From: Ginglymostoma cirratum
Taxonomy: Eukaryota
Direction of reading: 5' to 3'
Assembly: GCA_024137785.1 (NCBI GenBank)
Contig: JAHRHZ010000016.1
Span: 57,365,650-57,429,649 of the forward strand
Length of the DNA: 64,000 nt
Shown: positions 1 through 62,844 of the stretch, in pieces
Numbering within the stretch: position 1 is the stretch's first letter
Layout: the number at the start of each line of letters is the position of its first letter
Program-made: the position numbers and the translations under genes
Notes under the pieces: generated by a model
Told to the model about the DNA's origin: nothing
Databases searched by the model: none
Seen by the model: only the letters and a program-made list of their open reading frames with translations

Positions 1-130
1 CTTGACGTTTTGGGCCTAAACCCTTCGCCCGAAACGTCAAGTTTTCCTGCTCCTATGCTGCTGCTTGACCTGCTGTGTTCATCCAGCCCCATGCTTGTTA
101 TCTCGGATTCTCCAGCGTCTGCAGTACCTT
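1..130. mobile_element. Penelope-derived terminal repeat with palindromic junction and hammerhead 3' half
   Basis: cttgacgttttgggc/gcccgaaacgtcaag inverted pair (1-41), followed by the cctgctcc...ctgctgtgttcatccagc...ttatctcggattctccagc arm also seen at 35839, 55627, 56107 and 62025. Confidence 0.7.
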
Positions 131-544
131 TTTATCTCTGAAACATTTCGATAAGCTGGGCTAACAACCTAGCACGGTATTGAGGTGCATCTTTCTGACG
201 ATAGGTTAAGCTGTAACCCACTCTACCTCTCTCTGGTTGACATAAAAGATCCCACAGTGCTATTTTGAAAAAGAGGGGTGAGTTATCTCTGCTCTCACGA
301 CCTTTTGAAAATGCAAAGACGGTATCTTTTTATTTTTCTGTACCTTTGCTTGTGGACTGAACTGAATAAAAGGCTGTTTTATCCGCCGAGCATTTTGGAA
401 GGAAATTGCCGTACTTTTGTCAAAAGCTGGCTATTGACCATCATTAGAAGTGCTGTTTATACCGCTGTTCGTTCCAATGGCCAGAACCCCAGACTAATTG
501 TCTGGGCACATGAGTTCAAATCTCTCAATGGTAGATGGCAAAAT

Positions 545-1690: not shown

Positions 1691-3094
1691 GCAGATGAAC
1701 TGGAGCCAGGCGTTAGTAAAAGGTGATTTGGCCAGCGACAGCTAGCTGATTGGTCTGTAGAGTGGTGACCAGTTGTCCGTGACAAAGGACTACCAGGAAC
1801 AATGTAATTGGCTGTTGGGCAGCTGAACAGCTTGTGGATGTAAACAATAGGCTTTGGATCTCTGGAAAGGGAGAGGCTGTCTTTCTCTCTGTAGTAAAAA
1901 AAGCTCAAAATCTGTGGAAAACCAATTCCCTTTCCCTCACTGCTTGCTGTAAGTTATTTGTTCTGAACAAATAAGTCAGAGACTTGATATGTTGTGAACC
2001 AGGCACTCTGCGCCTCCACATAGAACATACCTGGAAAAGAGAGATCAAGGTGCAGCACATTCTGGCAAGCCAGAAGGATCACCTCAGTGAACCCTGTGGA
2101 CAGGGAACATTGAACTGCTTTCCCGTTCTTTCCCTCCACCCAGATCACCAATGTCTTTATGTTTGTTCGTATAGAGGTTGTTTTATGAAGGAATTAAAGC
2201 ATTGACTAGTAGAGGTACATGTTGAGGATTCACAATTATTTACCTGTCGCTAAAATCCTTAAATAATAGCTCTTGTTAAGAACAGAAAGTTGGTCCATGG
2301 TTTCTTTCAACCCGAGGCTAAAAACAACCACATAAATTGGGGAATATTTCAAAGATAATTTTGGTGACTCCGATGAATAGTAGGGCTTAATCTCCAGAGC
2401 ACTAACCCAGTGGAATGTAACAGCTAGCATTACTAAAATGACAAATGATCAAACTTTTAAGGTGACAGCTCTGTCTCAGTTGGATGTTCTCTTGTTTCTG
2501 AGCCCAAAGGATATGGGTTTGTGCCTCCCTCCAGAAAGGTAAAGTCAAGGCTGATACCCCAGAAGAAACTTGGCAGATAAAACACTGAGATTTTGTTGCA
2601 TTTTGGATTGGACTTTACGCTGAGATTCCATCTGTCCTCTCGGATGCACAGAAATGCTCCTTTGAAACGATTTGAAGTGGACTGTGGCTGCTCTGCTGAA
2701 TAGTTATTCCTTGATTTCATTAATACAGATTTTTATTTAAGATTCATTCACTGGAAGTGGGCATCATTGGCTGGCCAAGCATTTGTTGCCCATCGTTAGC
2801 TGCTGTTGAGAAGGTGTCCGTGAGCTGCCTTCTTGAACTGCTGCAGTCCATTTGGTGTAGGTAGAACAGAAAATGCTCTTAGAGAGGGAATTCCAGGATT
2901 TTGACCCTTCAATTCAGCTGCATTGGGTGCTGCAAGCCAGACAGAACCACACTGACACCTGGTTGCAATAGAAAAGACCTGGATAGAGCAGACAAATGTG
3001 GACTGTAAAATATTCATTGCTCGCGATGCTGAAATCTGGTTTGCCTTATGGGGACGAACTGCAGCCTCTGTTGGTTCTGATCGTAACAAAAAAA

Positions 3095-3420
3095 AAAAAT
3101 TCCGGAGAAACTCATCTGTCTAACAGCATCTGTGGAGAGAGAGACAGAGTTAATGTTTTGGGTCCAGTAACCCTTCTTTGGAACTGGTAGCCAGGAAAAG
3201 GTGGTAAATCTGCTGAAGGCAGGGGTGGTGAAGACAAGGATAGGTGTGTGATGGAGTATTTGATAGGTGATGAAAACAGCAAAGGGATAGCTAATGGTAA
3301 GCCTGGGGAGGGGAAGAAGCTGATAATAGGGAATATTAGTTGGTGAAAATAGGTTGGCTGCAGTGGAAGGGGTCCATGTAATGACAAGGTTTGGGGTAAA
3401 GACGTAGGAACAGAAATTGG
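3095..3420 (-). mobile_element. Penelope-like element terminal fragment
   Basis: ggagaaactc...cagcatctgtggagagagagacagagttaatgttttgggtccagtaacccttc arm followed by a purine-rich body, as at 41950-42180. Confidence 0.6.
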
Positions 3421-3424
3421 GCCT

Positions 3425-6400
3425 TTCAATCACGGCTGATAAGTTTCTCAACCCCATTCTCCCGCTTCCTGCCCATAGCCGTTGATCCCTTTGACAATCA
3501 ACAACCTATCTATCTCTGTCTTAAATGTACTCAATGACCTGGCCTCTATAGCCTTCTGTGGCAGTGAATTCCATTGATTGACCACATTCTCTGGCTGAAG
3601 AAGTTTCTCCTTATCTCCGTTCTAAAAGGTCTTCTCTTTACTCTAAGGCTGTGCCTCTGGCCCTAATCTCTCTGACCAATGGGAATATCTTCCCAACATC
3701 TATTCTGTCCAGGCTATTCAGTATCCTGTAAGTTTCAATTAAATCCCTCCTCATCCTTCTAAACTCCATCATGTATGGACCCAGAGTCCTCAAACGTTCC
3801 TCATATATTCAGCTTCCTGGGACCATTCTCAAACCTCCTCTGAACCTGCTCCAGGGCCAGTACATCTCTCCTGAGATAAGGAGCCCAAAACTGCCCACAA
3901 AACTCCAAATGTGGCCTGACCAGAGCCTTATAGAGCCTCAGAAGTACATCCCTGCTTTTATATTCAAGTTCTTGCAAAATAAATGCCAAAGTTGCATTTG
4001 TCTTCCTGACTACTGACTGAACCTACAAGTTTACCTTGAGAGAATCCTGGACTAGAACTCCCAAGTCTCTTTGCACTTCAGATTTCTGAATTTTCTCCCC
4101 ATATGAAAAATAGTCCATGTTTTTACTCTTCTTACCAAAGTGCATGACCTCACACTTTCCCACGTTGTACTCCATCTGCCACTTCTTTGTCCACTCTCCT
4201 AATCTGTCCAAGTCCTTCTGCAGCCTCCCCACCTCCTCAATACTACCTGTCCCTCCACCTATCATTGTATCATCTGCAAACTTAGACCGAATGCCCTCAG
4301 TTCCTTCATCTAGATCATTAACGTATAAAGTAAGAAGTTGTGGTCCCAATACTGACCCTTGTGGAACACCATTAGTCACCAGATACCATCCTGAGAAGGA
4401 CTCTTTTAACCCCACTCTCTGCTTTCTGCCAGACAGCCAATCTTCTATCCGTGCTAGCACCTTGCTTCTAACACCATGGGCCTTTATCTTACTTAGCAGC
4501 CTCCTGTGTGGCACCTTATCAAAGGCCTTCTTGAAGTCCAGGTAGATAACTTCCATTGGCTCTCCTTGGTCTATCCTGCTCGTTACGTTCTCAAAGAATT
4601 CAACAGATTTGTCAGGCATGACCTCCCCTTGATGAAACTATGCTGACTTTGGACTATTTCACAATGCACTTCCAAGTATTCAGAAATCTCTTACTTCACA
4701 ATGGACTCTCAAATCTTACCCGTGAGTGAGGTTAGGCTAATTGGCCTGTAATTTTCAGTCTTTTGCCTTATTCCCTTTTTAAACAGGGGTGTCATGTTTG
4801 CAATTTTCCAGTCCTCTGAGACCCTCCCTGACTCTAGCTATTTCTGAAGGATCACCACTAATGCCTCCACTATCTCTTCAACTATCTCCTTTAGAACTCT
4901 GGGGTGTAGTTCCACAGGTCTAGGTGATTTATCCACCTTCAGGCCATTCAGCTTTTCTAGCACCTTCTCCTTAGTGATGGCCACCATGCGCAGCTCTGCA
5001 CCCTGACTCTCGAATTTTTGGGATATTAATTGTGTCTTCCACAGTGAAGACTGATGCAAAGTAACTATTCAGTTCCTCAGCCATTTCCTTGTTCCCCACT
5101 ACTATCTCTCCATCATCATTTTCCAGCAGTCCAATGCCCACTTTTGCCCTCTGACGTGGGCAGTGAGATGGCAGATGCAGTTTAATCTGGAAAAATGTGA
5201 GGTAGTGCATTTCAGAAGGTCTAATCCAGATGAAAAAAAAATACAGTAAATGGCAGAATGAGGGATCTGGGTGTACAGGTACACAGGTCACTGAAAGTGG
5301 CAACGCAGGTGGAGAAGGTTGTCAACAAGGCATACGGCATGCTTGACTTCATCAGCCTTGGTATTGAGTTTAAAAATTGGCAGGTAATGTTGCAGCTTTG
5401 TAGAACATTAGTTCGGCTGCATTTGGAATATTGTGTTCAATTCCGGTCGCCACACTGCCAGAAGGATGTGGTGGCTTTGGAGAGGGTACAGAAAAGATTT
5501 ACCAGGATGTTGCCTGCTATAGAGGGCATTGGCTCTGAGGAGAGATTGGAGAAATTGGGTTGTTCTCACTGGAACGACGGAGGTTGAGGGGCGACCTGAA
5601 AGAGGTCTACAAGACTGTGAAGGGCATGGACAGAGTGGACAGTCAGAAGCTTTTTCCCTGGGTGGAAGAGTCAGTTACCAGGGGCCATGGGTTTAAGGTG
5701 CGAGGGGCAAGGTGTTTTACACAGAGTGGTGAGTGCCTGGAACTCATTCTTGGGGGAGGTAGTGGAAGCAGATGTGATAGTGACTTTTAAAGGGTGTCTT
5801 GACAAATACATGAATAGGATGGCAATAGAGGGATATGGTCCCTGGAAGGGTAGATGGTTTTAGTTGTGATGGGCAGCATGTCAGTGCAGACTTGGAGGGC
5901 TGAAGGGCCTGTTCCTGTACTGTAATTTTCTTTGTTCTTTGTTCTTTATTCTGTTGGTCTTTACAAGCTTCCCAAACATCTGGTTTTTAATTGCCTTTTG
6001 CCACGTTATATACTTTCTCTTTTCCTTTTATGCCAACCCTGACTTCCCTAATCAGCCATGGTTGCCCCATTGACCCTGCACTATGCTTCGTTTTCCTAAG
6101 GTTTAATTTTTGCTGTGTGTCCTGAATTACTCCTAGAAATTCCTGCCATTGCTTTTCCACTATCTTTCCTGCTAGGCTCCTCTCTCAGTCAATCCCCAGC
6201 TTCTCCCTCATGCCTCTGTAGTTGCTTTATTCAGCTGTAACACCATTACCTCTGATTCTATTTTCTCCCTCTCAAATTGCAGAGTAAATTCAATCACATT
6301 GTGATCGCTGCCTCCTAAGGGTTCCTTCACTTTAAGCCCCTTTATCAAGTCTGCCTCATTGCACTACACTAATCCTGTATTGCCTGTTCCCTAGTGCTCC

Positions 6401-8149: not shown

Positions 8150-8680
8150 CTTTAAAAAATTATTGAACTCTGTTGAGTCCTGAAGGCTGCAGGGTCCCCA
8201 AGTGGAAAATGAGGTGATGTCCTTCCAGCTTGCGCTGAGCCTCACTGAAGCGCTGCATCAAGCCTGAGACAAAGATGTTGGCCAGGGGACAGGGTGGTGT
8301 ATTGAAGTGGCTGCCAACTGGAAGCCCACAGTCATTATTGTGATCATTTTTGCTTTCTCTAAATAAACGGTTGCATTTGGGATTGTCCAATTGCTTTCCT
8401 GTACGTGATGGACCCGTATTGGAAAATGATAGAAGGTGTAAACTGTGTGGTCTCGTGATTAAACAGTGACTCAGATGTGAGAAGGGGCTCTGTGTGTGAG
8501 GAAATCTCAGCTATGTAGGCAATGTTCCATGCGGAGCATAGTGGCCTTCCAAAGATGACGTGGATGTGAGGGATGCCAGTCTTTTGGATATTCATTTGAG
8601 TGGCATGTTATTCTGGGAATGGTGTGTGTGTGTCAGGATGGGGCTAGAACGGGACTTGAGCAATGTTGTAGATTCAGGGT
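8150..8680 (-). mobile_element. Penelope-like element GIY-YIG fragment
   Basis: LPVGSHFNTPPC...RKLEGHHLIFHLGTLQPSGLN, typical of the Penelope endonuclease C-terminus. Confidence 0.75.
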
Positions 8681-17198: not shown

Positions 17199-18506
17199 AC
17201 CAGCACTGGGACCTGATTTGTGCCAACCTCCAAGAACCGCCATTGCACATCACCAATCCATTTACGGGATGCTTCAGCACTTAGAGTCAGAGAATTACAC
17301 AGCATGAAAATAGACCCTTTGGTCCAACTGTCCACACTGACCATGTTCCCAAACTAAACTGGTCACACCGGCCTGCGCTTGACCCAATTACCTCCACACC
17401 TTTCCTATTTGTGAACGTATCCAAATGTCTCTTAAATGTTGTAACTGTATCTATACCTTGGTGGGAATTGGTTACAGCAGCCGATATAAATTGAAGACGA
17501 AGTAGTAGAGAGAAGAAGGTAGTGTGTACACTTGGCTGAGACTGCTGTAACATGGCTAGTAACCTCCAACCAAGCTGGCATGATCCACAGCATGGCCTCC
17601 TCTGGTGGTTTCTGGGTTAAGAGGGGGTCCTGCCCTATTCCTGATCCACAAAGCAGTGAGCTGATTTCCCTCTGACCACCATGTCTGGGGCAATTATCAG
17701 AAGCCATGTCGGGCAGCTCCTGACTAGCAGTGCCTACCTGGGTACACAATAAGCTTTTAAAGGTGCAAGGGATGCCTGAGATCAGTGTGCGGTAAAATGA
17801 GGACAGAATTGGGTTTGGAGATCATATTAGGGATGGGGAAGTAGGCAATTGGATGAGTTTGGTAAGTCACAAGAGAAAAAACTTGCTAGGCCTCATCCAA
17901 ATGCAATGTGATTCTTCTTCAGAAGGATACTCATATTGCACTTCAATTGGTTCTCTCTCCAGGCCTGCTGATTTTTGTTTCCCAGTGATTTCTGCTTTTA
18001 TTTTGAAATATTCCTATTTGTTTTTAATCTGGAACAGTTTCTGAGAAATCCGAGCACTTAAAGTGAAATTCAGCCTTTCGTCCTCTCCTCACCTGAAAAC
18101 CAGTGAAAAGTCCTGACGGAAAGTCCCATTCACTGGCACTCGCTGATCTCCATTGACTCCTGTTCCACCAAAGTGTCAAACTTAAAATTTATTCACTATT
18201 GTTCAAAATCTCTCTGTGGCCTCTTCTTGTCCTTATCTCTGTGACCTTTCGCAGCCCCACAGCCCTCCATGTGCACTGTGCTGCTTCGATTCTGGCATTG
18301 TGGATACTCCCAGTTTAAATCACTTCACCATTGGTGGCCATGTCACCTATTGGTTGGGTCCTGAGCTCCAGAATTCTCACCAAATCTTTATAATTTGCAA
18401 ACTGCCTTTCCCTTAGAGACATCCTGGATAAGACTTGCTTTGTTCATCTCCTTCTTTGTTTCAGTGTCCATTTTCCACAGATTTTACTCCCGTGAAGTGT
18501 CTTTCG

Positions 18507-24956: not shown

Positions 24957-26094
24957 CTGCAGTGAAGGAAAACATGAAACATGAAGTGTCACTGTACTGC
25001 ACATTTACAGCAAAGTGCAATTCACAACACCCTGAGATCTCATCAATGATGCTGTTACATTCCAGTGTTCCAATATTATTTTACCATTCTTACATCTTAC
25101 TTTCGTTAGCTTGTAAGCTGCTTTATTTTAAATCCCTTCCCTAAGACACATCATGTTTACACTTTGAGATTATCTTTGATATTGCACTTTCCAACTGATT
25201 TGCAATTAACTGCATCTAATGAAATACATTCGATCGATATTATCCCTTGTTAATTCTCAGAGCAGAAGTAGGTATCATTCAGCCTTAACTACTGTGCAAA
25301 CAACATCACTCATCTATAATATGCCTTGATAGAAAACCTCTTAACTTTAAACTTTTTAATTAAATATCACAAACAACCGTTCAAGTGCTTTACATGATCC
25401 AGCATAATTTAGTTGGAATTCATTTTTTTTTAATGAGATTTAATATCCCATTTCACTTGCTGAGCTGGGAATGCCACGATTCACAGAAATAGTATTTATT
25501 TGACCTGCTGGAAGCAGAACTGAAAAGGGAAATTATACCTCTGGCATCTAATCAGTTCTGAAGAAATTGTGAGAGGATTATAACTGTGTGTGAGCACGGT
25601 ATTACAAGTAATATATTTTAAAGCAAAAACATTTTCTGTTTAGAAAATGAGAATGTACATTTTGCTTCTTTTTTCAAATCTTTACTTATTAAACTAAAAT
25701 GATGTAAAGACAACCTTTACATCAACATTAAATCTGGATGAGGAAGATAGTTATCTTTGTGTTATCTTTGGCCCTTAGTCAAGCTTCTGATGACATAGTT
25801 GCATCATCATTAAAGACTCTCCATCTCCAAAAAGCACCATTACTGCCTCAACTCCTCTGTTGCTGAGAACTTTATTCATGCCTCTGTTACCTCTTGATAG
25901 CTCCAAAAGCCCAGCCTCTGGTACTCTACCCTCTATAACGTGATGTCATCTAAAGGTCTTTGTTGCCAAATTGGATTTGATTTTGCTCTGAATGTCTCCC
26001 TGTCCTTGGTTCTCCCACCAGAGGATGTAAATCCTCTGTCACTGTCCTCGCAAATCCATTCACATAATAAACGCTAAAATAAGACAAAAAAACT

Positions 26095-26300
26095 GTGTAT
26101 GCAGGAAATCTAAAATGAAAAACAAAATTGCTGGAGAAACTCAGCAGGTCTGGCAGCATCTGTGGAGAGAGAAAATCAGATTTAATGTTGAGTCCAGTGA
26201 CCCTACTTCAGAGGAAGCGTCACTGCCCTCAAAATGTTAACTGGGTTTCTCTCTCCGCAGATGCTGTCAGACCTGCTGAGTTTCTCCAGCAATTTCGGTT
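26095..26300. mobile_element. Palindromic two-arm Penelope-derived element
   Basis: ctggagaaactcagcaggtctggcagcatctg ... cagatgctgtcagacctgctgagtttctccag inverted arms around degenerate hammerhead halves. Confidence 0.8.
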
Positions 26301-26322
26301 CTTAGTTAACATTTTAAATGGC

Positions 26323-26460
26323 ACAGTTCTGAGGAAGGGTCACCAGACCCGAAACTTGAACTCTGTTTTCTCCTTCACAGATGCTGCCAGACCTGCTGAG
26401 CTTTTCCAGCAACTTTGTTTTTGTTCCTGATTTACAGCATCCGCAGTTCTTTTGATGTTT
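26323..26460 (+). mobile_element. 138-bp hammerhead-headed non-autonomous element with 12-bp TSD
   Basis: TSD attttaaatggc at 26311-26322 and 26461-26472. CTGAGGA-A-GGGTC-acca-GACCC-GAAAC at 26329-26355. Confidence 0.8.
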
Positions 26461-26661
26461 ATTTTAAATGGCTTGATCAGATCACCCCTCTATTCTTCAA
26501 AACACGCTTATGTAACTAACCTTCATAACTGGACTCCCCTTATCATTCTGATGAATCTGCACCGATATACTTACACTTTCTGAGACATACACCCAAATCT
26601 TAACACAGCATATTACAACAAGGAACACATGCATCACTTTAGCTCATGAAATAGTTCTGAC

Positions 26662-28726: not shown

Positions 28727-30018
28727 TCATAGAATCCCTACAGTGTGGAAGCAGGACATTTAGCCTATCAAGTTCAAACTGACTCTCTGAACAGCATCCC
28801 AACCAGACCCACTCTCCTACACCATCCTTGCAACTTGACATTCCCCATAGCTAAACCACCTCGCCATTCTGAGAAGGACCCTTTTATCTCTACTTTCTGC
28901 TTTCTGCCAGGCAGCCAATCTTCTATCCATGCTAGCACCTTGCCTCTAACACCGTGAGCCCTTATCTTACTCAGCAGCCTCCTGTGTGGCACCTTGTCAA
29001 ATGCCTTCTGGAGATCCAAGTAGATCATATCCATTGGCTCTCCTTGGTCTAACCTGGTTGTTACCTCCTTAAAGAATTATAACAGATTTTTCAGGTATGA
29101 CGTCCCTTGATGAAACCATGCTGACTTTGTCCTAGCTTATCATGCACTTCCAAGTAATCAGAAATCTCATCCTTCACAATGGACTCCAAAATCTTACCCA
29201 CGTCCGAGGCCAGGCTAATTGGCCTGTAATCTCTCATCTTTTGCCTTACTCCCTTTTTAAACAGGAGTTTTACACAAGTGATTTTCTAGTCCTCTTGGAC
29301 CTTCCCTGCCTCCAGTGATTCCTGAAAGATCACCACTAAAGCCTCCGCTATTTCTTTTATCTCTTTTAGAACTCTAGGGTGTCGTCCATCCGGTCCAGGT
29401 GATTTATCCACCTTCAGACCTTTCAGTCTTTCTTGCACTTTGTCCTTGGTGATGGCCACCATACTCACCTCTGCCCCTTGACTCTCTTGAATTTTTGGGA
29501 CGTTACTCATGTCTTCATCCATGAAGACTAACACAAAGTTCTTGTTCAGTTCTTCCACTATTTCTTTGTTCCTTATTACTCTACTTCTTCTCCAGCGACA
29601 TTTTCCACTGGGGCCAATGTTTACTTTTGCATCACTTCTTCCCTTTATCGATCTAAAGAAACTCTTGCAATCTTCTTTCGTATTACTTGTAAGCTTACCC
29701 TCCTTATTTCTTCTTTAGTTGTCCTCAGTTGGTCTTTGTAGGCTTCACTATCCCCCAGCTTCCCACTGCCCTTCGTCACATTATAAGTTTTCTCTTCTGC
29801 TTTTATGCTGCCCCTGGACTTCCCATGTCAGCCATGCACAACTTTGGATTGTGGAATGAAATCAGAGCACCCGGAGAAAACCCATGCAAATACAGAGAGA
29901 ATGCACAAACTCCACACAGGCAGTCACCCGAGGGTGGAATCGAACCCGGGTCCCTAGTGCCATGAGGCAGCAGGGCTAAGCACTGAGCCACCGTGCCATC
30001 CCCATGTGTGTCTCATAA
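28727..30018 (-). mobile_element. HE1 SINE containing an internal CR1 ORF2 fragment (28861-29828), flanked by a 15-bp TSD
   Basis: TSD cattattttgaggaa at 28712-28726 and 30019-30033. HE1 tail 28727-28860; HE1 V-domain and head ~29829-30002. CR1 motifs IYLDLQKAFDKVPH and LKVDKSPGPDG lie between. Confidence 0.85.
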
Positions 30019-33810: not shown

Positions 33811-34041
33811 CTCAAAACAAAAGCAAAATACGGCAAGTGCGAGAGATCTGAAATGAGAACAGCAATTGTTGGAGAAATTCAGCTTGTCTAACAGCATCTG
33901 TGAAGAGAGAGAGGCAGAGTTATTGTTTCAAATCTTAATTCTGAAGAAGAGACATACTGGGCTTGAAGCGTTAACCCTTGATTCTTTCTTCACAGATGCT
34001 GCCAGGCCTGCTGATTTCTCCAGCACTTTCTGTTTCCTTTC
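33811..34041. mobile_element. Palindromic Penelope-derived element with 12-bp TSD
   Basis: TSD caaaagccaaca at 33799-33810 and 34042-34053. Inverted arms cagcatctgtgaag/cttcacagatgctg. Degenerate core ctgaagaagagacatactgggcttgaagcgtt. Confidence 0.75.
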
Positions 34042-35438
34042 CAAAAGCCAACAGCTTGACTAATACCCCAACGCAACCATATCATTGACCTTTAGTGACC
34101 CTTGAAGTGGCCCAGCAACTGCTCATTTCTAATAGGATTGCTTCATGAAGGAACACTTACACACGGTGGACAACAAATATGGCTGCCTTTTGTGCTGTCT
34201 GATCCTGGTGAAAAGCTTACTGCAGAGATAACCCAGAAAATTCTACCTGGAATTGACGTCAAAATAACCAAGGGTGGGCTGATGTATCCAAAGGGACCAG
34301 AAGTCCACTAGGAAACATACTGCTTGGATCAGAATATCAGTCAAATGGCAGTTCAGAACAGACAACCAGCAAGTGCTAACTACTCAAATATTCATTTCAC
34401 AATTCACTCCAGACACAATGTGCTGCTGATGGATAGATGTTGACAAAGGTTTTTGGAGAACTGGGTGTCAGATTGAATTTCAAGTGCTGACCATTAAAAA
34501 TAAAATCAACAAAAACATTTAATCCATTTCACAAATGTAGTTTAATACTCTTTAGAATAAATGGAGACTGGAAGTTACTGCTGGGATCAAGGAGATGCTA
34601 AAGTATAGCAAAGCTATGGATACTTAAAGCACGTCCACCAACAATTTGCATTTCTACAGCACCCTGACAGCAAAATATCCCAAGGTGCTTCATGAGGACT
34701 CTGTTAGTCAACATTTGACACATGTTAGGATAGATGGCCAGAGTTTGGTGAAAGTCACAGCTTTTAAGAAGCATCTTACACAAAGATGGAGAGTGGAGGA
34801 GAGGTGAAGAGGTTCAGGGAGAGAATTTCAGAGATTCAGCCCAGGGCAGCTGATAAAAATAGCCACCACTAATTGACTGATTAAAATAAAGAGGCCAAAA
34901 TTCAAGAAGTTCAGGGTTAATGAAGGCTTGTCGGGCTGGGGAGGTTACAGCAGTCCTTGCCAAATTTTCCAACTTTGACCCCATTTTAAGGTTTAAAAGT
35001 TGATGTGACCCATTCGTGAGAGTGGAGGAACTGCAGGCTTGTTTGAGGGGGAAGGCGCAAACTTATAGCTTGGCCAGAATCTATTGTGGCAACTGCCATC
35101 TCAGAGCTTACAACTCCAAAGTTTCTGCTTGCAACTGCACTTGGGGCCCGTCTCCCCACTTTTGGAAGCCCTGGTTTACAGAGCTAGCAAGGTGCTAGAC
35201 TGTAGAGGTGTTTGAAAACCATGATGGGAAATATGAAATCAAGGTATTGCCTGACTGGGAGCCATTGTAAGTTAGTGAGCACAGTGGGCAATGGGTAAAT
35301 GGAATTTGGTACTGGTTACGATACATTAAGAGGGGCCCAGAAGGAATGGACTTGAAACACTGATTCTATTTTCTCTCCACAGATGTTGCCAGAGCTGCTG
35401 AGTATCTCTAGCACTCGCTGTTGTTGTTTCACGTCAAC

Positions 35439-35838
35439 NNNNNNNNNNNNNNNNNNNNNNNNNNNNNNNNNNNNNNNNNNNNNNNNNNNNNNNNNNNNNN
35501 NNNNNNNNNNNNNNNNNNNNNNNNNNNNNNNNNNNNNNNNNNNNNNNNNNNNNNNNNNNNNNNNNNNNNNNNNNNNNNNNNNNNNNNNNNNNNNNNNNNN
35601 NNNNNNNNNNNNNNNNNNNNNNNNNNNNNNNNNNNNNNNNNNNNNNNNNNNNNNNNNNNNNNNNNNNNNNNNNNNNNNNNNNNNNNNNNNNNNNNNNNNN
35701 NNNNNNNNNNNNNNNNNNNNNNNNNNNNNNNNNNNNNNNNNNNNNNNNNNNNNNNNNNNNNNNNNNNNNNNNNNNNNNNNNNNNNNNNNNNNNNNNNNNN
35801 NNNNNNNNNNNNNNNNNNNNNNNNNNNNNNNNNNNNNN
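35439..35838. other. Assembly gap (400 N)
   Basis: Run of N; the right flank is the Penelope-derived arm. Confidence 1.
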
Positions 35839-35939
35839 TTCCTGCTCCTATGATGGATGCTTGGCCTGCTGTGTTCATCCAGCTCTACACCTTGTTATCT
35901 CGGATTCTCCAGCATCTACAGTTCCTATTATCTTTGATA

Positions 35940-41949: not shown

Positions 41950-42830
41950 GTCAATAAATGTGGAAAAGCACAGCAGTTCAGATAACAGGAGCAGGGAAGT
42001 CAACGTTTTGGGCTGAAACCCTTCATCCGGGCTGGGCAGGAGTAGAGGAGCCCAGAGATAAATGGGAGAGGGGGTGGGTGGGTGAGATGGAGATAGGTAG
42101 AAACAGGTGGGGGATATTGTGGTTGGTCAGTGGGAAGGGTGGAGTGGATAGGTGAGTAGGAACATGGACAGGTTGGGGAAGGAGAAATTTTGAAGCTGGT
42201 GAAGTCAATATTCAGGCCATTGGGCTGTAAGCTCCCAAGGTGAAATATGAGGTGTTGTTCCTCTAGTTTACGTCTGGCCTCACTCAGTGGGGGAGGCCAG
42301 GGATCGGCATGTCACCAGGGGGAGTTAAAGTAGATGGCAACCGGAAAGTCAGGTTGGTTGGTATGTGCACAGCAGAGATGCTCCGCAAACTGGTCCCTGA
42401 ATCTGCATTCGGTCTCCCTGATATAGAGGGGACCACACCCGGAGCAATGGATACAACAGATCAGGTTTAGTTGAAGTGCAGGTGAATCTCTGCCGGATCT
42501 GAAAGGATTGTTTGGGGCTTTGGACGAAGGTGAGATGGGGGGTGAGGGGGGGAATGTAGGGGCAGGTGTAGTACCTCCTGAGGTTGCAGGGAAGGTTACC
42601 AGGTGTGGTGGAGAAGTTGGTGGGGAGTGTGAAGCTGATGAGGGAGTCACGGAGTGAACAGTCCCTGCAGAAAGCAGACTGGGGTGTGCAGCGAAAAATC
42701 TTTTTGGTGGTGGGGTCTGATTGTAGGTGGCGGAATTGTCGCAGGATGATTTGTTGCATTTGGAGGTTGGTGGGATGGTATGTGAGGACTGAGGGGACTG
42801 TATCCTTATTGTTGTTGGGGGGAGAGGCAT
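41950..42830 (-). mobile_element. Penelope-like retroelement 3' fragment (GIY-YIG endonuclease plus hammerhead-bearing terminal repeat)
   Basis: Frameshifted FQIRQRFTCTS / LICCIHCSGCGPLYIRETECRFRDQFAEHL...PVAIYFNSP (YIGET-type GIY-YIG). The terminus reads ccggatgaagggtttcagcccaaaacgttgacttccctgctcc on the minus strand. Confidence 0.85.
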
Positions 42831-44413: not shown

Positions 44414-44630
44414 GATAAACAGAAACTTCTGGAAATTTCGACAGGTCTGGCAGCAGTGTGAAGTGAGAAACAGAGTTAACGTTCCGAACTGAAGTTGATG
44501 CTTCCTCTTTGGAACTCGAATCGTTAACTTTCCCCGTGGATGATGCTGCCAGATCTGCTGAGTTGCTCCAGTGCTTTCTATTTGTATTTCAGATCTCCAA
44601 CATCCACCAGATCTTGCTTCTCGTTTTAGG
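44414..44630. mobile_element. Palindromic Penelope-derived element with 9-bp TSD
   Basis: tcagacaaa at 44405-44413 and 44631-44639; inverted arms caggtctggcagca/tgctgccagatctg. Confidence 0.7.
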
Positions 44631-44750
44631 TCAGACAAATTACTGACTCACTTTCTCAATGTCTGACCGTTGAATGGAGGAACTATTACTCTTCACTCTG
44701 TTTGTCTAAGGGCTGTCACTTTAAGATCCCGATCATGCGACACAATAATG

Positions 44751-44842
44751 TCCTGATGAAGGGTGTAAACCCGAAATGTTGAATTTCCTGCCCCTCTGAT
44801 GCTGCCTGACCTGCTGGGTTCCTCCCGCTCCACACTGTATTG
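44751..44842 (+). ncRNA. Minimal hammerhead-ribozyme-like motif heading a short Penelope-derived element
   Basis: CTGATGA (44753-44759)-A-GGGT-GTAA-ACCC-GAAA-TGTT; stem II is closed by a GNRA loop. Possible TSD acaataatg/acaatgatg. Confidence 0.65.
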
Positions 44843-47800
44843 ACAATGATGACATCATTGGCCAGTTTGAGCAGGCAAACAGCTCTCCCTAACCTTTTGC
44901 CTGTAGAATGAACACCTCCATTTTAAAGCTCCTGCTGTTTCAGGCTGCCGACTCCTGATCCTTCTTGGAACTTAACACCAATTCCTAGCCGAATTGAGTC
45001 CATGTCATACAATGGGCTGTCATATTTATTGATCTGTTGTGGTAAGTAACTCCCACCCAAAGACAGTTTCAGTTTGCCATCAAGTATCGAGCATTCATCA
45101 GGTCAATACTGTGCGAAGCAGTGAAAACACAAGGGAGTGACAGAGGTGAGGAAGGGCTGGAAAGCTCAGTGAGTTCAGACAGATCTTTATTTGTAAGTGT
45201 TACTCATATAATCCTATGAATGATCAGGGTGGGAAATGGTCTGTTTGGTTTGGAATTACAGAGGATAAAATTTAACTCTGGTGGAGGCTCAAAACCTGAT
45301 GGTGGTGAGGCGCAGTGGAGAATATTACATCAAAATGTTGTGTGTCGATCATGGCTTTTCTCCTTCAGTGGCTTCATGACAGTTACTTCAGAGAACCAGG
45401 GTAGGCAGAATGTTTAATAGTGTATCTAAGACAGCACCGTATCTGGCCTGAGAGGTCAAAGACATCACTCTGTATGTGAGCCACAATTAACCAAGTGTGG
45501 CCAATGTTCAACAGGTACAACACAATCTAGGTCTAAGAGGGTATTACAAGGCAAGTGAAGGTTTCTGCAGAGGCAAACTTGCCCAGAGGGCAGGCAAGGC
45601 TTCAAGCACTCTAGGAATGATATAGTACAGTAGGATACCTGGCTAAGAGCACCTTGATTCAGTTCCTCTCTCTTCCTGCCAACCTGTCAAAGATATTAAC
45701 TTCTGTATTAGAATTATGAAACAATACTGTGTAGACACAGATTAAAATATTCCACTGATGTAGATTTAGTACAACTTTCTATTTTCTTTTAGTCATTCAG
45801 TGTTAGTTGCTGAATTGAAAAGGACAAAAATGGGGAATTTGCATGGCTGCAAGTGAAGAGGGGTGTGGGATATAATCCAACAGCTCTTCGAAAGAGCGAG
45901 TACAGGCTTGCGAGACTGAATTCAACCATCACTAATGGCATTTAGTATTGTTGAAGCTCCCACTATGAACATCCTGGGGATTACCATTGATGAGAAACTG
46001 CCTAGACATATAAATACAGTGGCTACAAGAGCTGGTCAGAGGCTGGGAATTCTGCAGTAAATGAACTCCTGATTCCTGAAGGCCTGTCGGCCATTGACAA
46101 GGCACAAGTCAGGAGTGTAACAGAACTTTTCTCCACTTGCCTTGAAGGTGCAGCTCCAACAACACTCAAGAAGGATAAAGCAGTCCACTTGACTTTTATC
46201 CCATCAAAACAGATCTCACCAAATGCTGGCTCAGCCAGTGATACCCACACCTGTATGATATATAATTGTTTGGTGTTTCCTTCTATTTAGCTCTGAAGGA
46301 CTCTGCACCCAGTGTGATCTGTGCTGTATCTCTCAAATCAAGGTCAGTCACACAATTGATCATTTAAATTATACAAAGGCTCATTGAAATTGATAGTTAT
46401 TAAAATGATGTATGAGTTTCAAGCAACGTCAGCAAATAAGGGAAGCAGATTTTCACACCACACCTCTTGAACAGTTGGGGACAGCACTGAAGGGAGCACG
46501 TTTCAGTTAAAAAAGAGATAACGCTGCAGTGTAATTTTCCCAATTAGCATTGTCCTTTGAGTGCAGGATTGAAGTGTTGGGATTTGAAGGTTCACTCAAT
46601 CAACCTTTAAAAGCACATCATACAAGCAGTAAAAGTCATTTCATCCTTGAAAGTTCTCTTTCAGTTTAGTGGTGACTTGGACCCATTTATTGCAAAAGAA
46701 AACAATCAATGATTCCATTAAAATGGTGAAGATTGGGCTTTCAGGTGTGCGTTTGTTCACTGGAATCCCACCATATTACTGCTACATCCATGAACAAACA
46801 AATGTTCTTTTGCCAACATTTCTTTTGCAATTCTAAATATTTTCACCAGAAAATATCACCTTGTGGCAAAAAAGCAGCAAAATTAAATTACTGCAAACAA
46901 AAACCCAACAAAATTTTTAGGAAATGTTGAAAAAAAAGAGCATTATACCATCTGAAAATGAACAGCCTTATCTCATCTGTGAAGAGACTGAGCAGGCCAG
47001 GGCTATTATGATAATAGCTGAGACTTAACTGAGCTGTTACTATAGCAACAGAATCAATTCAGGTTATGTCCAAAGATGCTAGCAGAAACTGTGTAGTGCA
47101 GCCTTACTAATAGTGATATGTATGAATAGTTCAAAGGTATAATCTTAATATGAAGGATTCTGTGTGAAGGTGCCACACAATTTACCAGAAACATAGCTAC
47201 GTTCTCTTTAATCAAATCAGGCTGTGCTTCATGTTAGGCTTTCAAACAGGAAACAGCACCATCATCCCTTTTTATTTTAAGCGTTTCAGCATGAATTTAT
47301 TCAACGCATAAAAAACATTTATTCCACTTGGTTACGAGTGTGTTAAGCCAGCTACTGGGAGCTGGCCATTTAACAAAATAACACTTGAGTTATACAGAAT
47401 CTAAAATGAGAAAAAAAAACACAGATGGTTTTAGCTCTAGGCACTTTACTGTTAAATCTTACGCAATGAATTTCTGCATTTGTATAGCACCTTTCAGAAC
47501 AGCTTAAAGCACTTTGAAGCCGATGAAGTACATTCGAGTGGTGTCACTGCTCTGATACAGTAATTGTGCCAATTCACTCACAGCAAGGCCCTCAGATAGC
47601 AATGTGATAATGACATGATAACGTGATTGTCAGTGATGCTGGTTGAGGGAAAATTATCGGTCAGACGACTGGGGAATAATTCTCATCTACTTTTTCAGAA
47701 TAATGGTACAGAAGCATTTATATCCATCCAAGACGACTAACAGAGCCTTGATTTTATTCTTTGTATTATCACTGGACTGATAATCCACAGACCCACCTAA

Positions 47801-48500
47801 TGTTCTGGGGAGCTGGATTCAAGTCCTGCCATGGTAGATGATGGACTTTAAATTCAACAAACAAAAAAATCTGGAATTAAGAGTCTAATGATAACAGTGA
47901 CTCCACTGAGAATTGTCAGAAAAACCCATCTGGTTCACTAGTATCCTTTAGGGAAGGAAACTGCCATCCTTACCTAGTCTGGCCTACATGTGAGTCCAGA
48001 CCCACATCAATGTGGTGACTCTTAACTGCCCTCTGGGCAATTAGGGATGGGCAATAAATGCTGCCTGGTCAGCGATGCCCTCATCCCGTGAATGAATTTA
48101 AAAAGAATGCTGACATTATATCATTACGGTGTGATCTTTCAGCTAGTAGATAAAGCAATATTGTGTTTAAAATGAGAGACATGTTCTAACTTAACAATAA
48201 AAAAGCCCAATAAACTATAGTTGCTGGAAATCAGAAGTAAAATCAGGAATCACTGCAAAAACGTCTCATTCAAAAAAAACGGCACCTCTGACAAGACAGG
48301 CCTCTCTCAATAGTGCATTGGGAGCATACATTCAGGTATCTGGGGTGAGACCCAAGGCAGTCCCCTTCAGACACAGAGATAAGGAAGGGCTGGCCCACAG
48401 AGGACATGAGCCTGCAGTATTTTCTTCACATATGGATTTGCTCTGTATTTTCCACCATTGCTCATCTCCAGGTAAGAAAGAATTAACAGCAGTAACTCAC

Positions 48501-48717
48501 AATGGGGTTTTTTACATAGGAAGAGGACTTGCTGTCAGCTTTCCGGTGCTTGTATTGTGCGGACGACTGTGAGGCACTGGCTGATACGGTGTTGCTGTTG
48601 TTTTCCTGGCTCAGGGGGTTACTCTCACTGTTCCATCGCTTGGGTTCAGGCTCATCTGGCAAGGGTGACAGTGGAGGTGGGAACTTCCTCTCCCTCTTTG
48701 TTAACTGCTTCGATAGC
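48501..48717 (-). CDS. AFF2: AFF2 coding exon
   Basis: tctctgtag|G, LSKQLTKRERKFPPPLSPLPDEPEPKRWNSE...YVKNPI, ATT|GTGAGT. 217 nt, phase 2 to 0. FPPPLSPLP matches AFF2. Confidence 0.92.
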
Positions 48718-49589
48718 CTACAGAGAAGGAAGACCGAATATTTGAGGGTCTGATAAATATTGGGATAAGTCGTACAAACACAGAATGGTTCATTAGTTCA
48801 TCAAGAAAAAGAATGAATGCTCGAGGATAGGATAAATATTGGGATAAGTTATACAAACACAGAATGTTTCATTAACACAAAAAGCCACTTGACCATCAAG
48901 TGAATCCTTTTCCATCTTCTAGGCTCATCTCATTCTTCGATTCACTCCCTGTATCTTTTAACATTCTTCCTGGAGGCAAGACACTTGTTACAACATTGAT
49001 TTTGAACAGCCAATATTGAGAGGAATCTTTGCAATGGAAAGACTACAAAAATAATTCAGTCCTCAAATACTTCCCAATTACACTGATGCAGTTGTAAATG
49101 AAAGCAAAATACTGCAGATGCTGGAAATCTAAAATATAAAAACAACAGGACTCTGAAGAAGTCACATACAACTCTTCAACATTAACTTCAATTCCCAATC
49201 ATAAAAAAAATGTTAGAAAGTAGAAGCAGGAGAAGACCATTCAGCCCTTCAAGCCTGCTCTATAATTCAATGTGTTCATGGCTGATACCCAGCTCAGTCA
49301 CTGTTCCCAGTTTCTACCCATAACTTTTGATCACGGCTTCAAGAATTATATCCAACTCTACGAAAACATTCAATGTTTTGACCTCAGCCACGTTGAGGCA
49401 TAGAATACCACAGGCTCAACAATATCTGGATGAAGAAATTTCTCCTCATCTCAGTCCCAATTAGCTTACCCCCTACCCTTAGACAAGAGTCCCCCGGGCT
49501 CTGGACACCCCAGTCATTGGGAACAGATGTTCCCAGACTTGTCACATTTTCCAGACAATTTCTGCTCCTTATTTAAACTATTTTTTTCT

Positions 49590-50398: not shown

Positions 50399-50633
50399 CT
50401 GCTCAAAGAAAGACAGTAATTGATTGTGAAGGACAGTGAATACAATGTGCAGAGAGATCAGGAGGCGATATTGTCCCGTGTTATGGTGCTGCAAAGTACC
50501 GTGGAAATCGATGGATGTTTTTCATGGACCCGACGAGCAGTGAAAACTGCACAGTGCATTTCGTTAACTTTAGGCCACCATACCCACACGTGCCAGCACA
50601 GAAAGTCTTAGAGCAAGGGATCATAAAGGATTC

Positions 50634-50768
50634 TGTTCTGAAGGAGGGTCACCAGTCCCGAAACGTTAACTCTGACATTTTCTTCACAAACGCTGCCAGA
50701 CCTGCTGGGCCTTTCCAGCAACTTCTGTTTTTGTTCCTCATTTACAGCATCGTGTTTCTTTTGGCTTT
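50634..50768 (+). mobile_element. 135-bp hammerhead-headed non-autonomous element with 11-bp TSD
   Basis: TSD ataaaggattc at 50623-50633 and 50769-50779. CTGAAGG-A-GGGTC-acca-GTCCC-GAAACGTT-aac. Confidence 0.78.
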
Positions 50769-50813
50769 ATAAAGGATTCATGTTTGACAGATCATGCGGT
50801 TCTAATTCTCTAT

Positions 50814-51158: not shown

Positions 51159-52962
51159 CTTGTTTGGTGGGAACCACCTATTACAAGAAATAAGTTTGGA
51201 TTTTCTGAATACAGCAGGCTGACCAGGTTGGGGAGTAAGTCTTTAAACCAACGTAGGGCCTTCCATTAATGGACATCCGAAATTTAATCATCACTTTAAA
51301 CATTTCATAGAAATTTAACAAGTTTGGGCAGGAGCTGCCTACTGGCTGAATTGATACCTCTTTCTATCTCAGGAAGATCACATTGCCTAGTGTCGTCTGT
51401 AGCTTGCTTCAAATTATCTTGCTTGCTCGTTAGCCATAATCTTTACAATTTCTTCTCTTAAAGGTCTCTCTGATAGCCTTTCTAAAGATATATAATTGGA
51501 GTTACAGGGGTATTAGCAGACCAAGGATTAGCAGACTGGGCAGAAGAAACAGCCCCTACACCAGAACCAAGCTGGCTCGTCCACTGTTGGGTCTCATTTA
51601 CATTAGACTGTCAAACTGCAAATATATCCTGCATTGTCACTGGTGAAGAGGCCATGAATTAATGATCTAATAAAGGAAGACAATGGTGAGTGGAAAAAGT
51701 CTTCAGGACTCTTGAGGAGGCAGGTGGAATAGAATTCACACACAGAAGTTTTTTTTTTTAGGGAGTCCACCTATTTGGAAATAAGAAATAAGACCAGGTT
51801 TGGGATTAAGTCTTGAAACTGACACAAGGCCTTTCTCTAATAGACACCCAAAACTTAATCATTGTATTAAATGTCTTAAAAGAATTTAACAAGTTTGGAC
51901 AGGAACTGCCTAGAGAAAAAAAAACAATCTCAATTATTACCACTAAAATAGAGGAAACCTAAATTAGGAGTAAGCTGCTTCTGGGAGACAGAGAAAAAAA
52001 ATATACTTTTCCTTTTCGTTTTCCTGACTGGAAAAATCTCATTTCCACTGCTGAGAATAGACTGGCTGAGATTATTTATGCTTATTTAATAACTGTTCAC
52101 TCGCAGCTGGATAGGAACTGGAAGAAGCCATTCGGCCATTTCGTCCAGTGCTGTCACTCAGTGGGTGATCTGCTTCTCAACTCTTTGCTCTGTATCCTTT
52201 GTAACTTCTGTCTCTCCAGGTCCCACGTGGGCATCACAGGCAAGACCAGCATGAAGGGCCATTGAGAAGGTTGTGGGGAGCTGTTTTCTTGAATACAAGT
52301 TGAGCAGCCAGTTGGGCCATTTCAATGAAATTGTTGTGGGTTTGGAGTCACATGTGGGCCTTAGAGGATGGGGAAAGCAGGATGCCATCTCTAAGGGACA
52401 TTAGTGGATCGGACGGGCTGTTAACACACAGACGAATGAGGTAGTGGAGTAGGCCCTTCCAGCCTGCTTGCCTTTCCAAATGTTTCCTCATCTCTGCTTT
52501 TAATAGGTGAGCCCTTATTTTTAAACGATGACCCCCTAGTTCTCACTATTACTGATTCTTTCTTCAAAACAAAAAGCTCCAGATGTTATTTTGTTCAGTG
52601 AATTTAAGTTCCCCGGATGCTATGTTAAGATTCAAATGCATGGACTTTTCAAATTTCAATTCTAATGCTGTTCTTGCTCCTGTACACCTACCATGCAGCT
52701 GTAACCCTGTATTCCTTACTCTGTCTAAACGCCCGATGATCGATATGTCCTTGTATGTTATGATCTGCCTGTACTGCTCACAAAACAAAACTTTTCACTG
52801 CGCTTAGGAGCATGTGACAATAATAAATCAAATCATGTCTTCCCGATAATGACACCAGGTCTCTGATTACTGGTCCATTAACATACTCATTATCTCTACA
52901 GTGTTTGAGAACTTTCACTGTCAAATTTCCTTGTGTCTGCCCTTTCGAGAAAGGTCACTAAC

Positions 52963-53949
52963 CTTATGTTTCCGTTTGGTTTTGATGGTGTTTTTGTCTG
53001 TCACTGCTGTAGGGGACTGATAGCTGCATTTACTGTTGGACTCTCTGACCTCAGGCTTCACTGGGGTTGTCTCTGCTGGGGTCTGTCCAGGAATCCTGGA
53101 CAATAGACTGAGATCAAACTTCACCCAAAGTGATTTAATTTCCTCGTAATCTCTCAGGGGCGAAAGAAGTTCATTTTGCGGTAGTGGAAGCGGTGAGAAT
53201 GAGGGTTCCTCTAAGTCAGTAGTAGGTGCCTCAGCAGCAGTGCTACTCGGACAGTTATTGACGCTCCCGCAATCTTTAGGTTGGAGCGAGTTTGTCGTGA
53301 TGGTAGACCCCGCTGGGATTTTCACTGGCATGTGTTCTTCTTGATCTGTGTGGGAATCGGACGAGTCTGTCTCCACAAACTCTCTCGATTTAGGCACAAT
53401 CTTACCAGGCACTCTGTGCTTTTTCCTGTCAACAGCAGGCACCGTGCTGGTTCTTGGCTCTTTCCTGGGTCCCGTTTTGTTAATGGCTGCTCTCGGCTTT
53501 GCTTTGGGTTGTTCAGCTGTAGCTCCTCGGCTGTCTCTTTCTTTGGGAGTACTGCTGGGGTTATTTGGCTTGGCCCAACTCTGTTCCTCCAAGCTGGGAG
53601 TGCATTCCACTCTCCTGGGCTGCTTCTTACCCGTGGTCTTCCTTGGAGGAGCTGGCTCATTGGGTACAGGGGACTTTTGCTTCACACTTTTCCCTTCGGG
53701 GGTTTTCTGTGCAGTCCTTGGTTTAGCTTTCTCCCTGATGGGACTGAGTAAGACCCTATCTTTGGAATCTGGCTGAGGCTGTGATATGGTCTGCTTCCCT
53801 TTGATCTCTTTGTCATTCTGTTGATTGCTTTGAGGTTCAGAATCACCAAGTCCATCACAATCGGTTTGGTTGTTGACGATGGTCTTGTTGTGCGAGTGGA
53901 CTTTGAGCCACTTATCCAATTGCCATTTATTGGTCGATGGTGGTTCAGG
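52963..53949 (-). CDS. AFF2: AFF2 large central coding exon
   Basis: ttctcccag|CCT, 987 nt open frame PEPPSTNKWQLDKWLKV...GKKQP...PGKIVPKSREFVETDSS...ELLSPLRD...LWVKFDLSLLSRIPG...KRKHK, then AAG|GTTAGT. AF4/FMR2 family motifs; IREKAKPR and KIVPKSREF are AFF2-like. Confidence 0.97.
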
Positions 53950-54194
53950 CTGGGAGAAGCAAGAGGAAATGTTACTTCGTCACATTCTGACAACACATAG
54001 TGGCAACAGTCATGACTTCCTGATTCACAACTTTTAAGTTGGAGGAAAAACTCAACTTTTCACACAGCAGATATCAGACAGTCACTCAACCATTTCCCAA
54101 AGGGCTATACACACCTTCCTGATCCCAACACAGTTGGTTATAAAACTGCCCAATCACCCTCATGTGCTAAACTGGGATGCACCCACTAAGTGAT

Positions 54195-55130: not shown

Positions 55131-55145
55131 CAATCAGCTGTGTAC

Positions 55146-56178: not shown

Positions 56179-57404
56179 CTGCAGCTGTGATGAGATTATT
56201 CTAGTAACATATATACATATATATATAGTCACTTTTTGAAGATTTTGAATTTTGACCTCGTGGCTATGGGTGTTGGTCTATTTTTATAAAGGGCTTTAAA
56301 ACTAAGTAGGTTCATTTTACAGGAACTATGATTTTAAACTAGAATTCGTCTCCAGGAGTGTCAATGGAAATTTGTTTATGATAGGAGAGAGAAAATATGA
56401 AAGATACAAGTTGGTTTTGTTCAGAATAATCAAGAATTGATTTTAGCTTAGGAAAACCCAGAGGCTGGAAAGCTTTTGGGAAGACCGGACTGAAGTCAGA
56501 TGCAAGCACAGCCTATCCTAGAAAAAGGAGAGCTGTTAAGGAAACAAATTACATCAGCAGAAGAGTTCAGTTACTGCAACATCCAAACCAGGAGTGTTTG
56601 GTTAGAGACCTTTATTATTGGTTATTCAAAGCTGAGGAAATCTAGGATTTCAATTGTGTGAGATTTTTTAAGAAAATTGCAGGGTTACAGGGATAGAGTA
56701 AGGAGGTGGGTTTGGGTGGGATGTTCTTTGGAGGGTCAGTGTGACTTGACAGGCTGAATGGCCTGCTTCCACACTGTAGGGATTCCACGAAAAGGCATTG
56801 CACGAGACTGGAAGTAAGAAGAGGCAGTTCAGTCGAACCTGTACATTTGATAGGGGAGGGAAATTTCCCTAATTTTTTACCCAATAACTGTAAAGTGATG
56901 ATGTGGAGTTGCTAAGTTTTCGTTTTGTCATCTATTTTGAATCTATTCAAACTGAGTTATATTTAGATTGTTTAATTTCATTTATTTTGTTTTTTATTTC
57001 CTTTGTGCAATGAACTTCTATCTTATTGTTAAAATCAACCTCACCGCCTTGTGTGCTTATGTTTCAGTGAAGATTCACCACGGTAAATTAAAACAAATAT
57101 GATCTATCAAGCCATAATTCATTTTGGGACCAACACAGAAAACACTGGACAGGCACAGAAGGTCTGGAAGCATCAGTGGAGACAGAAATAGAGTTAATGT
57201 TTTGAGTCCTGTTCACTGCTGTAGAACCACCAAACTGGACTCGGAATATTAACTTTGTTTCTCTCTCCACAGATGCTGCAGTTTCTCCAGCAATCTTTGT
57301 GTTTCACTTATCTAGAATCTGCAGTACTTTGCTTACATTTGGATGTTTCGTTCTGAGATCTAATTTGTCCAGCAGTAACATCAGCTGGGATCATAACACA
57401 TACC

Positions 57405-61740: not shown

Positions 61741-62844
61741 GCAAATACACTCAGATTCTAACTCACTGGAGATGGTCATTACAAGTACAAATGTTTATAA
61801 ACTGTTTTGCTATAAGAACATCTGCAGTCCACTTGTACATAGTAAATTTGCAGAGGTTTTTGACTGATTTTTTTTCGAGGATGACTTGCCTTGCCTTCCA
61901 TGAAATAGTGCTGTGAAACTTTTGCTTTCATTTGAAGGGGCAAACAGAGCTTTGATTTAATGTCCCTAAACACCTTGCTGTCTTCCAGGATCTAAAATGA
62001 ATCTCACAACTGAGTGAAATAAATGAGATAACAAGGTGTAGAGCTGGATGAACACAGCAGGCCAAGCAGCATCAGAGGAGCAGGAAGGCTGATGTTTAGG
62101 GCCTAGACCCTTCTTTTTATTGCTTGACCCATTTCATGAGATTGGTTATGTTTTGATGAAGGTACGTTTAAATTCTCTCACTGATACTGCCTTTGGTGAG
62201 CTTAGAGAAAATGCTATGCTTTGAATGCCTTTATAAACAGACCTGCATTTATATAGCACCTTTAAGATGCCAAAATGCTTTACAGCCAATCAGGCGATGT
62301 ATAAAACATGGAAGAAAATTTTGCATACAGCAAGGTCCCACAAATAGCAATATCATTTTTTTTTTAGTTGTTGAGTGTAAGCAAAGACATTAGGGATAGC
62401 TCCTCTGCTTTTCCTTGGAATAGTGCCTTGGGATCTTTTATGTACAGCTAAGAATCTGGACAGGGCCTTAGTGCGACAAGGAGCACGAACAGTTGGCCCT
62501 GGCAGACAACAAAGAGTTAGGAAGCCAAATGAAAGGTTGACCTTCATTACAAGAGGATTGGAGTTCAAGGAGAGAAAAGTCTTTCTACAGGACTTGTATA
62601 GGGCTTTAGTCAGACCACACATTAAATAATGACCGTGATCTTGATGTCCATTTTAAAACAAGGATGCACCTGTATTGGGGACAGCATAGCAAAGATTGAT
62701 CCTTGGGAGGGCTGAGAGATGGTCAGTTAGCTCGGTTGGCTGGACAGTTGGTTTGCATTGCAAAGTGGCCGCAACAATATAGGTTCAATTCCTGCCCTGG
62801 CTGAGGTTACTATGAGGGTCTCTCCCCTGTATGGTGACCATCAG

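Follow-up and report, generated by a model that had tools for sequence, protein, structure and literature searches.

A 64,000-nucleotide stretch of the Ginglymostoma cirratum genome (the window) contains a short insert that opens with a hammerhead ribozyme motif, which raises the question of what kind of element this is and how it was written into the genome. The account that we consider somewhat better than even is that this insert and its relatives are solo and head-to-head terminal repeats (pLTRs) of a Neptune-type Penelope-like element (PLE), written by the PLE reverse transcriptase (RT)/GIY-YIG protein from RNA that was uncut at the hammerhead.

The insert has well-defined boundaries. As described in the first-pass annotation that flagged it, 138 bp lie between perfect 12-bp repeats (Table 1). 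In a boundary-anchored test this target-site duplication (TSD) scored 12, and none of 1500 random boundary pairs reached a score of at least 10. The hammerhead layout that had been read at its head is likewise present, with CUGAGGA, one extra A, a 5-bp stem II, GAAA and 4 bp of stem I pairing. The copy reads GAA-ACUU-G, which breaks the stem III palindrome and places a G at N17 in the standard hammerhead numbering scheme. A G is not known to be tolerated at position N17 of a hammerhead, and from this G together with ACUU we therefore predict that the ribozyme of the flagged copy is inactive. The insert directly follows head-to-head pair P2 (window 26059-26322), and a degenerate repeat that overlaps its TSD may be the duplication made by P2 itself (p = 0.4); it is possible that one target site was reused by the two.

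Table 1. Positions of the arm family, its flanking repeats and the associated ORF remnant in the window.
Feature	Position	Strand	Remarks
Head-to-head pair P1, subfamily B	1..139		Cut by window edge; core deleted at junction; right arm long
Single arm, subfamily A	3081..3187	-	About 210 nt of pyrimidine-rich sequence before arm
Head-to-head pair P2	26076..26308		Left arm long, right short; TSD not significant
Left TSD of flagged insert	26311..26322	+	12 bp
Flagged solo pLTR, subfamily A	26323..26460	+	Long (tailed) form; starts 6 nt before C3
Minimal type-I hammerhead motif of flagged insert	26325..26362	+	Predicted crippled; stem I; core 26329-26335; extra A; stem II 26337-26350; GAA 26351-26353; ACUU; G17 at 26358
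Right TSD of flagged insert	26461..26472	+	12 bp
Head-to-head pair P3	33796..34053		Left arm long, right short; 15-bp flanking repeat, 1 mismatch
Single degenerate arm, subfamily A	35340..35435	+	Ends at N gap
Long arm, subfamily B	35839..35935	+	Head inside N gap
3' pLTR of ORF remnant, subfamily C arm	41952..42035	-
Penelope-like ORF remnant	42051..42822	-	5'-truncated, frameshifted; thumb/linker with CX4CX2C-like motif, GIY-YIG end
Head-to-head pair P4	44405..44639		Left arm short, right long; 9-bp TSD
Solo pLTR, subfamily C	44742..44851	+	Short form (44751-44842); best preserved core; flanking repeat 8/9 bp, not significant
Solo pLTR, subfamily A	50623..50779	+	Long form (50634-50768); perfect 11-bp TSD; A9 to G
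Opposed subfamily B arms P5	55609..56196		Left short, right long, across 400-N gap; 18-bp flanking repeat
Head-to-head pair P6, old	57130..57336		Left arm short, right long; TSD not significant
Single arm, subfamily B	62023..62114	-	Short form; TSD not found
Hairpin-forming pairs	26076-26308, 33812-34041, 44414-44630, 57130-57336

The flagged insert is one member of a dense family. An nhmmer search of the window returned 21 matches, 19 of them with E < 1e-7, and the reversed-window control returned none; with one further arm cut by the window edge this amounts to 20 arms in 63 kb, well above the dozen or so in 64 kb that had been estimated. Three subfamilies of different age were assigned by eye from the alignment and a core identity matrix. 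Group A is older and holds the flagged copy, the 50634 copy and most of the pairs; group B is young, with 88–95% identity among the three cores compared; and group C comprises the 44751 and 41961 copies. Older, decayed remnants of the family, outside the count of 20, lie at 49090-49193 and 17915-18007.

The arm is the pLTR of a PLE, as revealed by an ORF remnant that carries a subfamily C arm at its end, and the Penelope origin first proposed for the arms is thereby supported. The arm is on the strand of the GIY-YIG homology and lies about 160 nt beyond its end, with a pyrimidine-rich stretch between the two. The best match of the remnant is a Mobula hypostoma protein (57% identity), a ray match that agrees with an elasmobranch host, and in tblastn the remnant aligns with an RT + GIY-YIG protein at 56% and 42% identity (E = 2e-29 and 1e-25). 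None of four PLE remnant frames was recognized directly by Pfam; their PLE identity comes from homologues, in which the GIY-YIG domain scores above the Pfam cut-off (P0004) or just under it (P0001). A profile built from 35 of the 63 full-length RT + GIY-YIG relatives returned found only two remnants in the window, this one and another at 8163-8510, of which the GIY-YIG remnant (8163-8333, minus strand) has no arm downstream. The CX2-5CXXC linker, a marker of the Neptune and Nematis groups (PMC8557442), is present in P0001 and in 35 of the 35 relatives checked (of 63), and one Cys of it is replaced in the window remnant 42051-42822. This marker in the relatives points to a Neptune-type element. 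The link to an ORF is seen for one of the 20 arms, in subfamily C, and for none in A or B; the core of the linked arm is 73% identical to that of the flagged subfamily A copy.

Taken alone, the hammerhead motif is weak evidence, and it is the family context that makes it convincing. A strict scan of both strands for core plus stem II gave two matches (26329 and 44753) against 1.2 expected, or 0.17 expected when stem II has at least 5 bp. Rfam returned no match in the whole window at gathering score, and in E-value mode it returned ten weak matches in 26000-26600, none to a hammerhead family; these are chance matches of the hairpin type that fall on the palindromic pair. When single heads were folded freely the hammerhead fold did not appear, as expected for a motif without stem III. 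Across the family, however, all of the features are present: the CUGANGA/GAA core, stems I and II, a palindromic stem III and an NUH site. The stem III tetramer is ACGT in 6 of the 17 arms that could be anchored on G12, and ACGT or a CpG-decay product in 12, while position 17 is U in 12 arms, C in 4 and G only in the flagged copy. The palindromic ACGU said to replace stem III therefore holds at the level of the family, with U or C at N17 in 16/17 arms.

No copy in the window retains a fully intact ribozyme. The 50634 copy has A9 changed to G and one mismatch in stem II; the 44751 copy has an intact core, a stem I of only 2 bp and AUGU in place of ACGU; and the remaining arms have a changed core or G12, or have lost the head. 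Positions 1-41, previously thought to supply the cleavage triplet, are the centre of a head-to-head pair with a deleted core. Covariation in stems I and II is suggestive only. It was assessed on a 7-copy head alignment from which 8 of 15 sequences had been dropped, as the 15-sequence alignment was too degenerate. One clean change speaks for covarying stems, the first stem I pair being U-A in five of the seven copies and C-G in two, and the structure outscores all slid controls on cells paired; it is weakened by the shuffles, of which 20 to 407 of 500 reach the five whole-structure measures on these seven copies. The covariation count is weaker when stem I is taken one pair shorter. A covariance model from the same alignment gives 19 matches at E ≤ 1 in the window, and among five inspected beyond the known arms only 49147-49193 resembles a further old remnant.

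Three features had been overlooked in the first-pass annotation: the ORF-linked copy, the head-to-head arrangement of arms and the presence of two kinds of 3' end. Twelve of the 20 form six opposed pairs, with heads inward and tails outward. Tabulated over nine insertions, TSDs are significant in five and range from 9 to 18 bp: 26323 (12 bp), 50634 (11), P3 (15, one mismatch), P4 (9) and P5 (18), so that three of the six pairs are included. They are not significant in the other four (44751, 62023, P2 and P6). Of the two sibling inserts also described as TSD-flanked, 50634-50768 is confirmed by its perfect 11-bp repeat, whereas the 8/9-bp repeat around 44751-44842 falls short of significance (p = 0.11). 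In P5, 5 bp of the flanking repeat (55609-55626 / 56179-56196) coincide with the end of the short arm, and these shared bases are possibly primer-template microhomology.

Two classes of 3' end can be distinguished, separated by about 35 nt, which matches the tail known from PLEs. Counted from G12, those defined by TSDs lie at +69, 69, 71 and 73 or at +108, 109, 112 and 118, one of the eight resting on the weak 44751 repeat. In subfamily B the extension of the long form is 33 nt in two arms, about 32 nt in a third and absent from two. All five scorable pairs combine one short and one long arm (p = 0.03), with the boundaries and short/long calls of P2 and P6 set by eye from alignments. At the other end, the start points of those three solos that have flanking repeats are -6, -4 and -2 from C3, and pair junctions fall at approximately -5 to +22, differing in all five pairs with a visible centre. 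The hammerhead cleavage site lies at about +30 from C3, and none of the 18 testable arms starts there (the other 2 of the 20 have their heads in gaps). Head-to-tail arrays of the arm are absent from the window, and neither circularly permuted copies nor copies exceeding one unit were seen there. Within old pairs the two arms resemble each other no more closely than they resemble arms of other pairs; this may or may not reflect their age. Four of the head-to-head pairs (Table 1) can form long hairpins on both strands (-65 to -125 kcal/mol), and if transcribed they could possibly serve as double-stranded RNA substrates.

Because the 5' ends lie at the head of the hammerhead, no testable arm starts at the cleavage site and there are no arrays, the template would have been uncleaved RNA. 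Its 5' boundary would coincide with the beginning of stem I and would probably be a transcription start within the pLTR. The enzyme would nick the target, and reverse transcription would begin at either of two internal sites, about 70 or about 110 nt past G12, as has been demonstrated in vitro for an anole PLE. An RT that started on the 5'-most pLTR would run off after 90–140 nt and leave a solo pLTR, much like a strong-stop cDNA. Were both target strands primed, one per start site, the two cDNAs would meet head to head and form a palindromic pair with a single tail, and priming from both flanks would turn tails outward and heads inward, as is seen in the pairs. The hammerhead would be inherited cargo, cleavable in the parent element only as a dimer and now decaying in the present copies.

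Much of this scheme has precedent. In the anole PLE, reverse transcription starts at two internal sites, and these define the tail; its protein cuts both target strands and extends them, is predicted to dimerize and can dispense with hammerhead cleavage (PMC11167929), although that element belongs to the Poseidon clade. Penelope and Neptune insertions share the inverted, 5'-truncated copy with an optional 30–40 bp tail at one end (PMC8557442), the head-to-head pLTRs, TSDs of about 8–10 bp and solo pLTRs (PMC3846280), and also assembly gaps at such structures (PMC3846280, PMC8557442, PMC11167929). In contrast to those insertions, the body is usually missing here: most copies are solos or pairs that lack an ORF, and 5' ends cluster at stem I. 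Arkhipova et al. ascribed head-to-head junctions to self-priming on an antisense template (PMC3846280); theirs was the only paper returned by a search for a twin-priming account of PLEs, with no instance of the term itself. The 5' RNA boundary at stem I is the weak step of the by-product model. In D. virilis, transcription is reported to start 46 nt plus an intron upstream, and the intron end maps to helix I. A pyrimidine tract and CAG directly precede stem I at 42030-42075 (-) and 3182-3225 (-). Judged against the initiator consensus, the CAGT that precedes stem I could serve as an initiator, or it could be a splice acceptor following the pyrimidine tract.

The solo pLTRs might instead be independent non-coding masters, transcribed and mobilized in trans by the PLE protein in the manner of SINEs, with a ribozyme head in place of a tRNA. 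The claim that there is no tRNA head stands, as the window contains no tRNA gene, and none of five arms tested matches the Pol III A/B box consensus, which sets the arms apart from tRNA/5S/7SL SINEs and counts against a SINE-like master. Otherwise the arms resemble such SINEs and the hammerhead-bearing, SINE-like schistosome Sm-alpha (PMC6765202) in being short, non-coding and TSD-flanked, and in that they would depend on a borrowed RT. An independent life is suggested by the 19 of 20 arms without an ORF link and by the discrete unit lengths and 5' ends. It also agrees with reports that insertion in vitro can be obtained with just a short RNA containing the RT start region (PMC11167929), that pLTR sequences are all that integration in trans requires in a rotifer (PMC3846280), and that non-autonomous PLE derivatives are known in Chlamydomonas (PMC8557442) and proposed for animal retrozymes (bioRxiv 10.64898/2026.07.22.740005). 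However, the same arm ends an ORF remnant, junctions differ from pair to pair, and the anatomy recurs in three subfamilies of different age, as expected of a recurring enzyme by-product. We therefore regard independent masters as unlikely and favour by-products of autonomous PLE RNA. The two readings are compatible, as a by-product that kept the promoter and the RT start sites could turn into a master.

If PLE insertions were truncated at random from the 5' side, or if direct pLTRs recombined, solos with no special boundary would result, and we consider this improbable. PLE copies are mostly 5'-truncated (PMC8557442), dispersed minimal hammerheads were interpreted in 2014 as truncated PLEs (PMC4209133), and in the window one arm runs into an ORF and one perhaps into a 3' region, the sequence upstream of the 3081 arm having no significant homology to the PLE 3' region (p = 0.24). 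Truncation does not predict three TSD-bounded solos that start within 5 nt of each other, nor pair junctions limited to so narrow an interval around C3. Recombination would also yield a TSD-flanked solo with a fixed 5' edge, but it cannot make head-to-head pairs.

More doubtful still is that the inserts are monomers of non-LTR retrozymes, excised through dimeric hammerheads, circularized and reverse transcribed from the circle. Animal retrozymes are similarly non-coding and derived from PLE pLTRs, with a type I hammerhead, short length and long TSDs (PMC7229834; bioRxiv 10.64898/2026.07.22.740005), and the 2026 preprint that traces them to pLTRs reports one positive chondrichthyan genome and monomers dispersed in Xenopus (bioRxiv 10.64898/2026.07.22.740005). 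By its definition, however, retrozymes are head-to-tail repeats with at least two hammerheads, which are processed into circles. With no tandem array of the arm and with ends that lie off the cleavage site, the inserts of this window fall outside that definition, and the label "retrozyme-like" is not supported. Nor was any circularly permuted copy seen in the window; the ribozyme is minimal and not canonical, and opposite-strand pairs are unable to form a dimer in cis. Finally, we give hardly any credence to a reading of the pairs as MITE-like DNA transposons, with the solos as fragments of them. Inserts of 200–230 bp with long inverted arms and TSDs would fit, but the two arms of a pair are unequal, only one having a tail, neither the junctions nor the TSD lengths are constant, solos carry TSDs of their own and the arm ends a retrotransposon ORF.

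A link between ribozymes and PLEs has been established since 2014, when dispersed minimal hammerheads "probably related to truncated PLEs" were reported together with opposite-strand pairs (PMC4209133). For other animals, publications already cover minimal hammerheads in dispersed form, opposite-strand pairs and solo pLTRs. The shark motif has the same CUGANGA core, unpaired nucleotide between 9 and 10.1, G10.1-C11.1 pair, short helix I and palindromic 15.2-16.2 as those minimal hammerheads, which likewise occur mostly as single dispersed motifs (Cervera and de la Pena 2014, PMC4209133) and number thousands per genome in coelacanth and Xenopus. Supplement file 2 of that paper has no shark, skate or Callorhinchus entries and, unlike for the shark arms, TSD-bounded solo units and two 3' ends are not described in the portion available to us. 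A whale shark repeat annotation lists Penelope. We did not find a description of this elasmobranch family in the literature searched, and Repbase/Dfam or the chondrichthyan retrozyme families of the preprint may include it.

The origin of inverted pLTRs and tails and the role of the hammerhead are treated as unresolved in the PLE literature we consulted. A dense family with sharp ends and TSDs offers a large natural record in which competing PLE models can be counted genome-wide: twin priming against antisense self-priming, cleaved against uncleaved template, and by-product against independent master. A bolder reading, which we think unlikely, is that solo and palindromic Neptune pLTRs of elasmobranchs have turned into self-propagating, Pol II-transcribed, hammerhead-headed short elements that rank among the commonest small repeats of the genome, and that the constant 5' edge, the two kinds of 3' end and the single tail of each pair record twin-primed, strong-stop PLE integration without ribozyme cleavage.

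The family also bears on annotation, as arms lie beside both assembly gaps and long hairpins lie near exons of an AFF-family gene. A large exon of this AFF (AF4/FMR2) family gene is at 52921-53979 (-), with PF18875 at its cut-off, and further probable AFF exons were noted by eye near 48483-48797 and 55127-55441. Self-BLAST reveals many other repeated segments in the window. RT fragments of other non-LTR retrotransposons, which we take to be of CR1/L2 type, are found at 4023-5587, 28774-29714 and 61359-61709 (PF00078 for 4023-4637). Both 400-N gaps (35439-35838 and 55707-56106) adjoin young subfamily B arms, as would be expected if palindromic repeats break the assembly.
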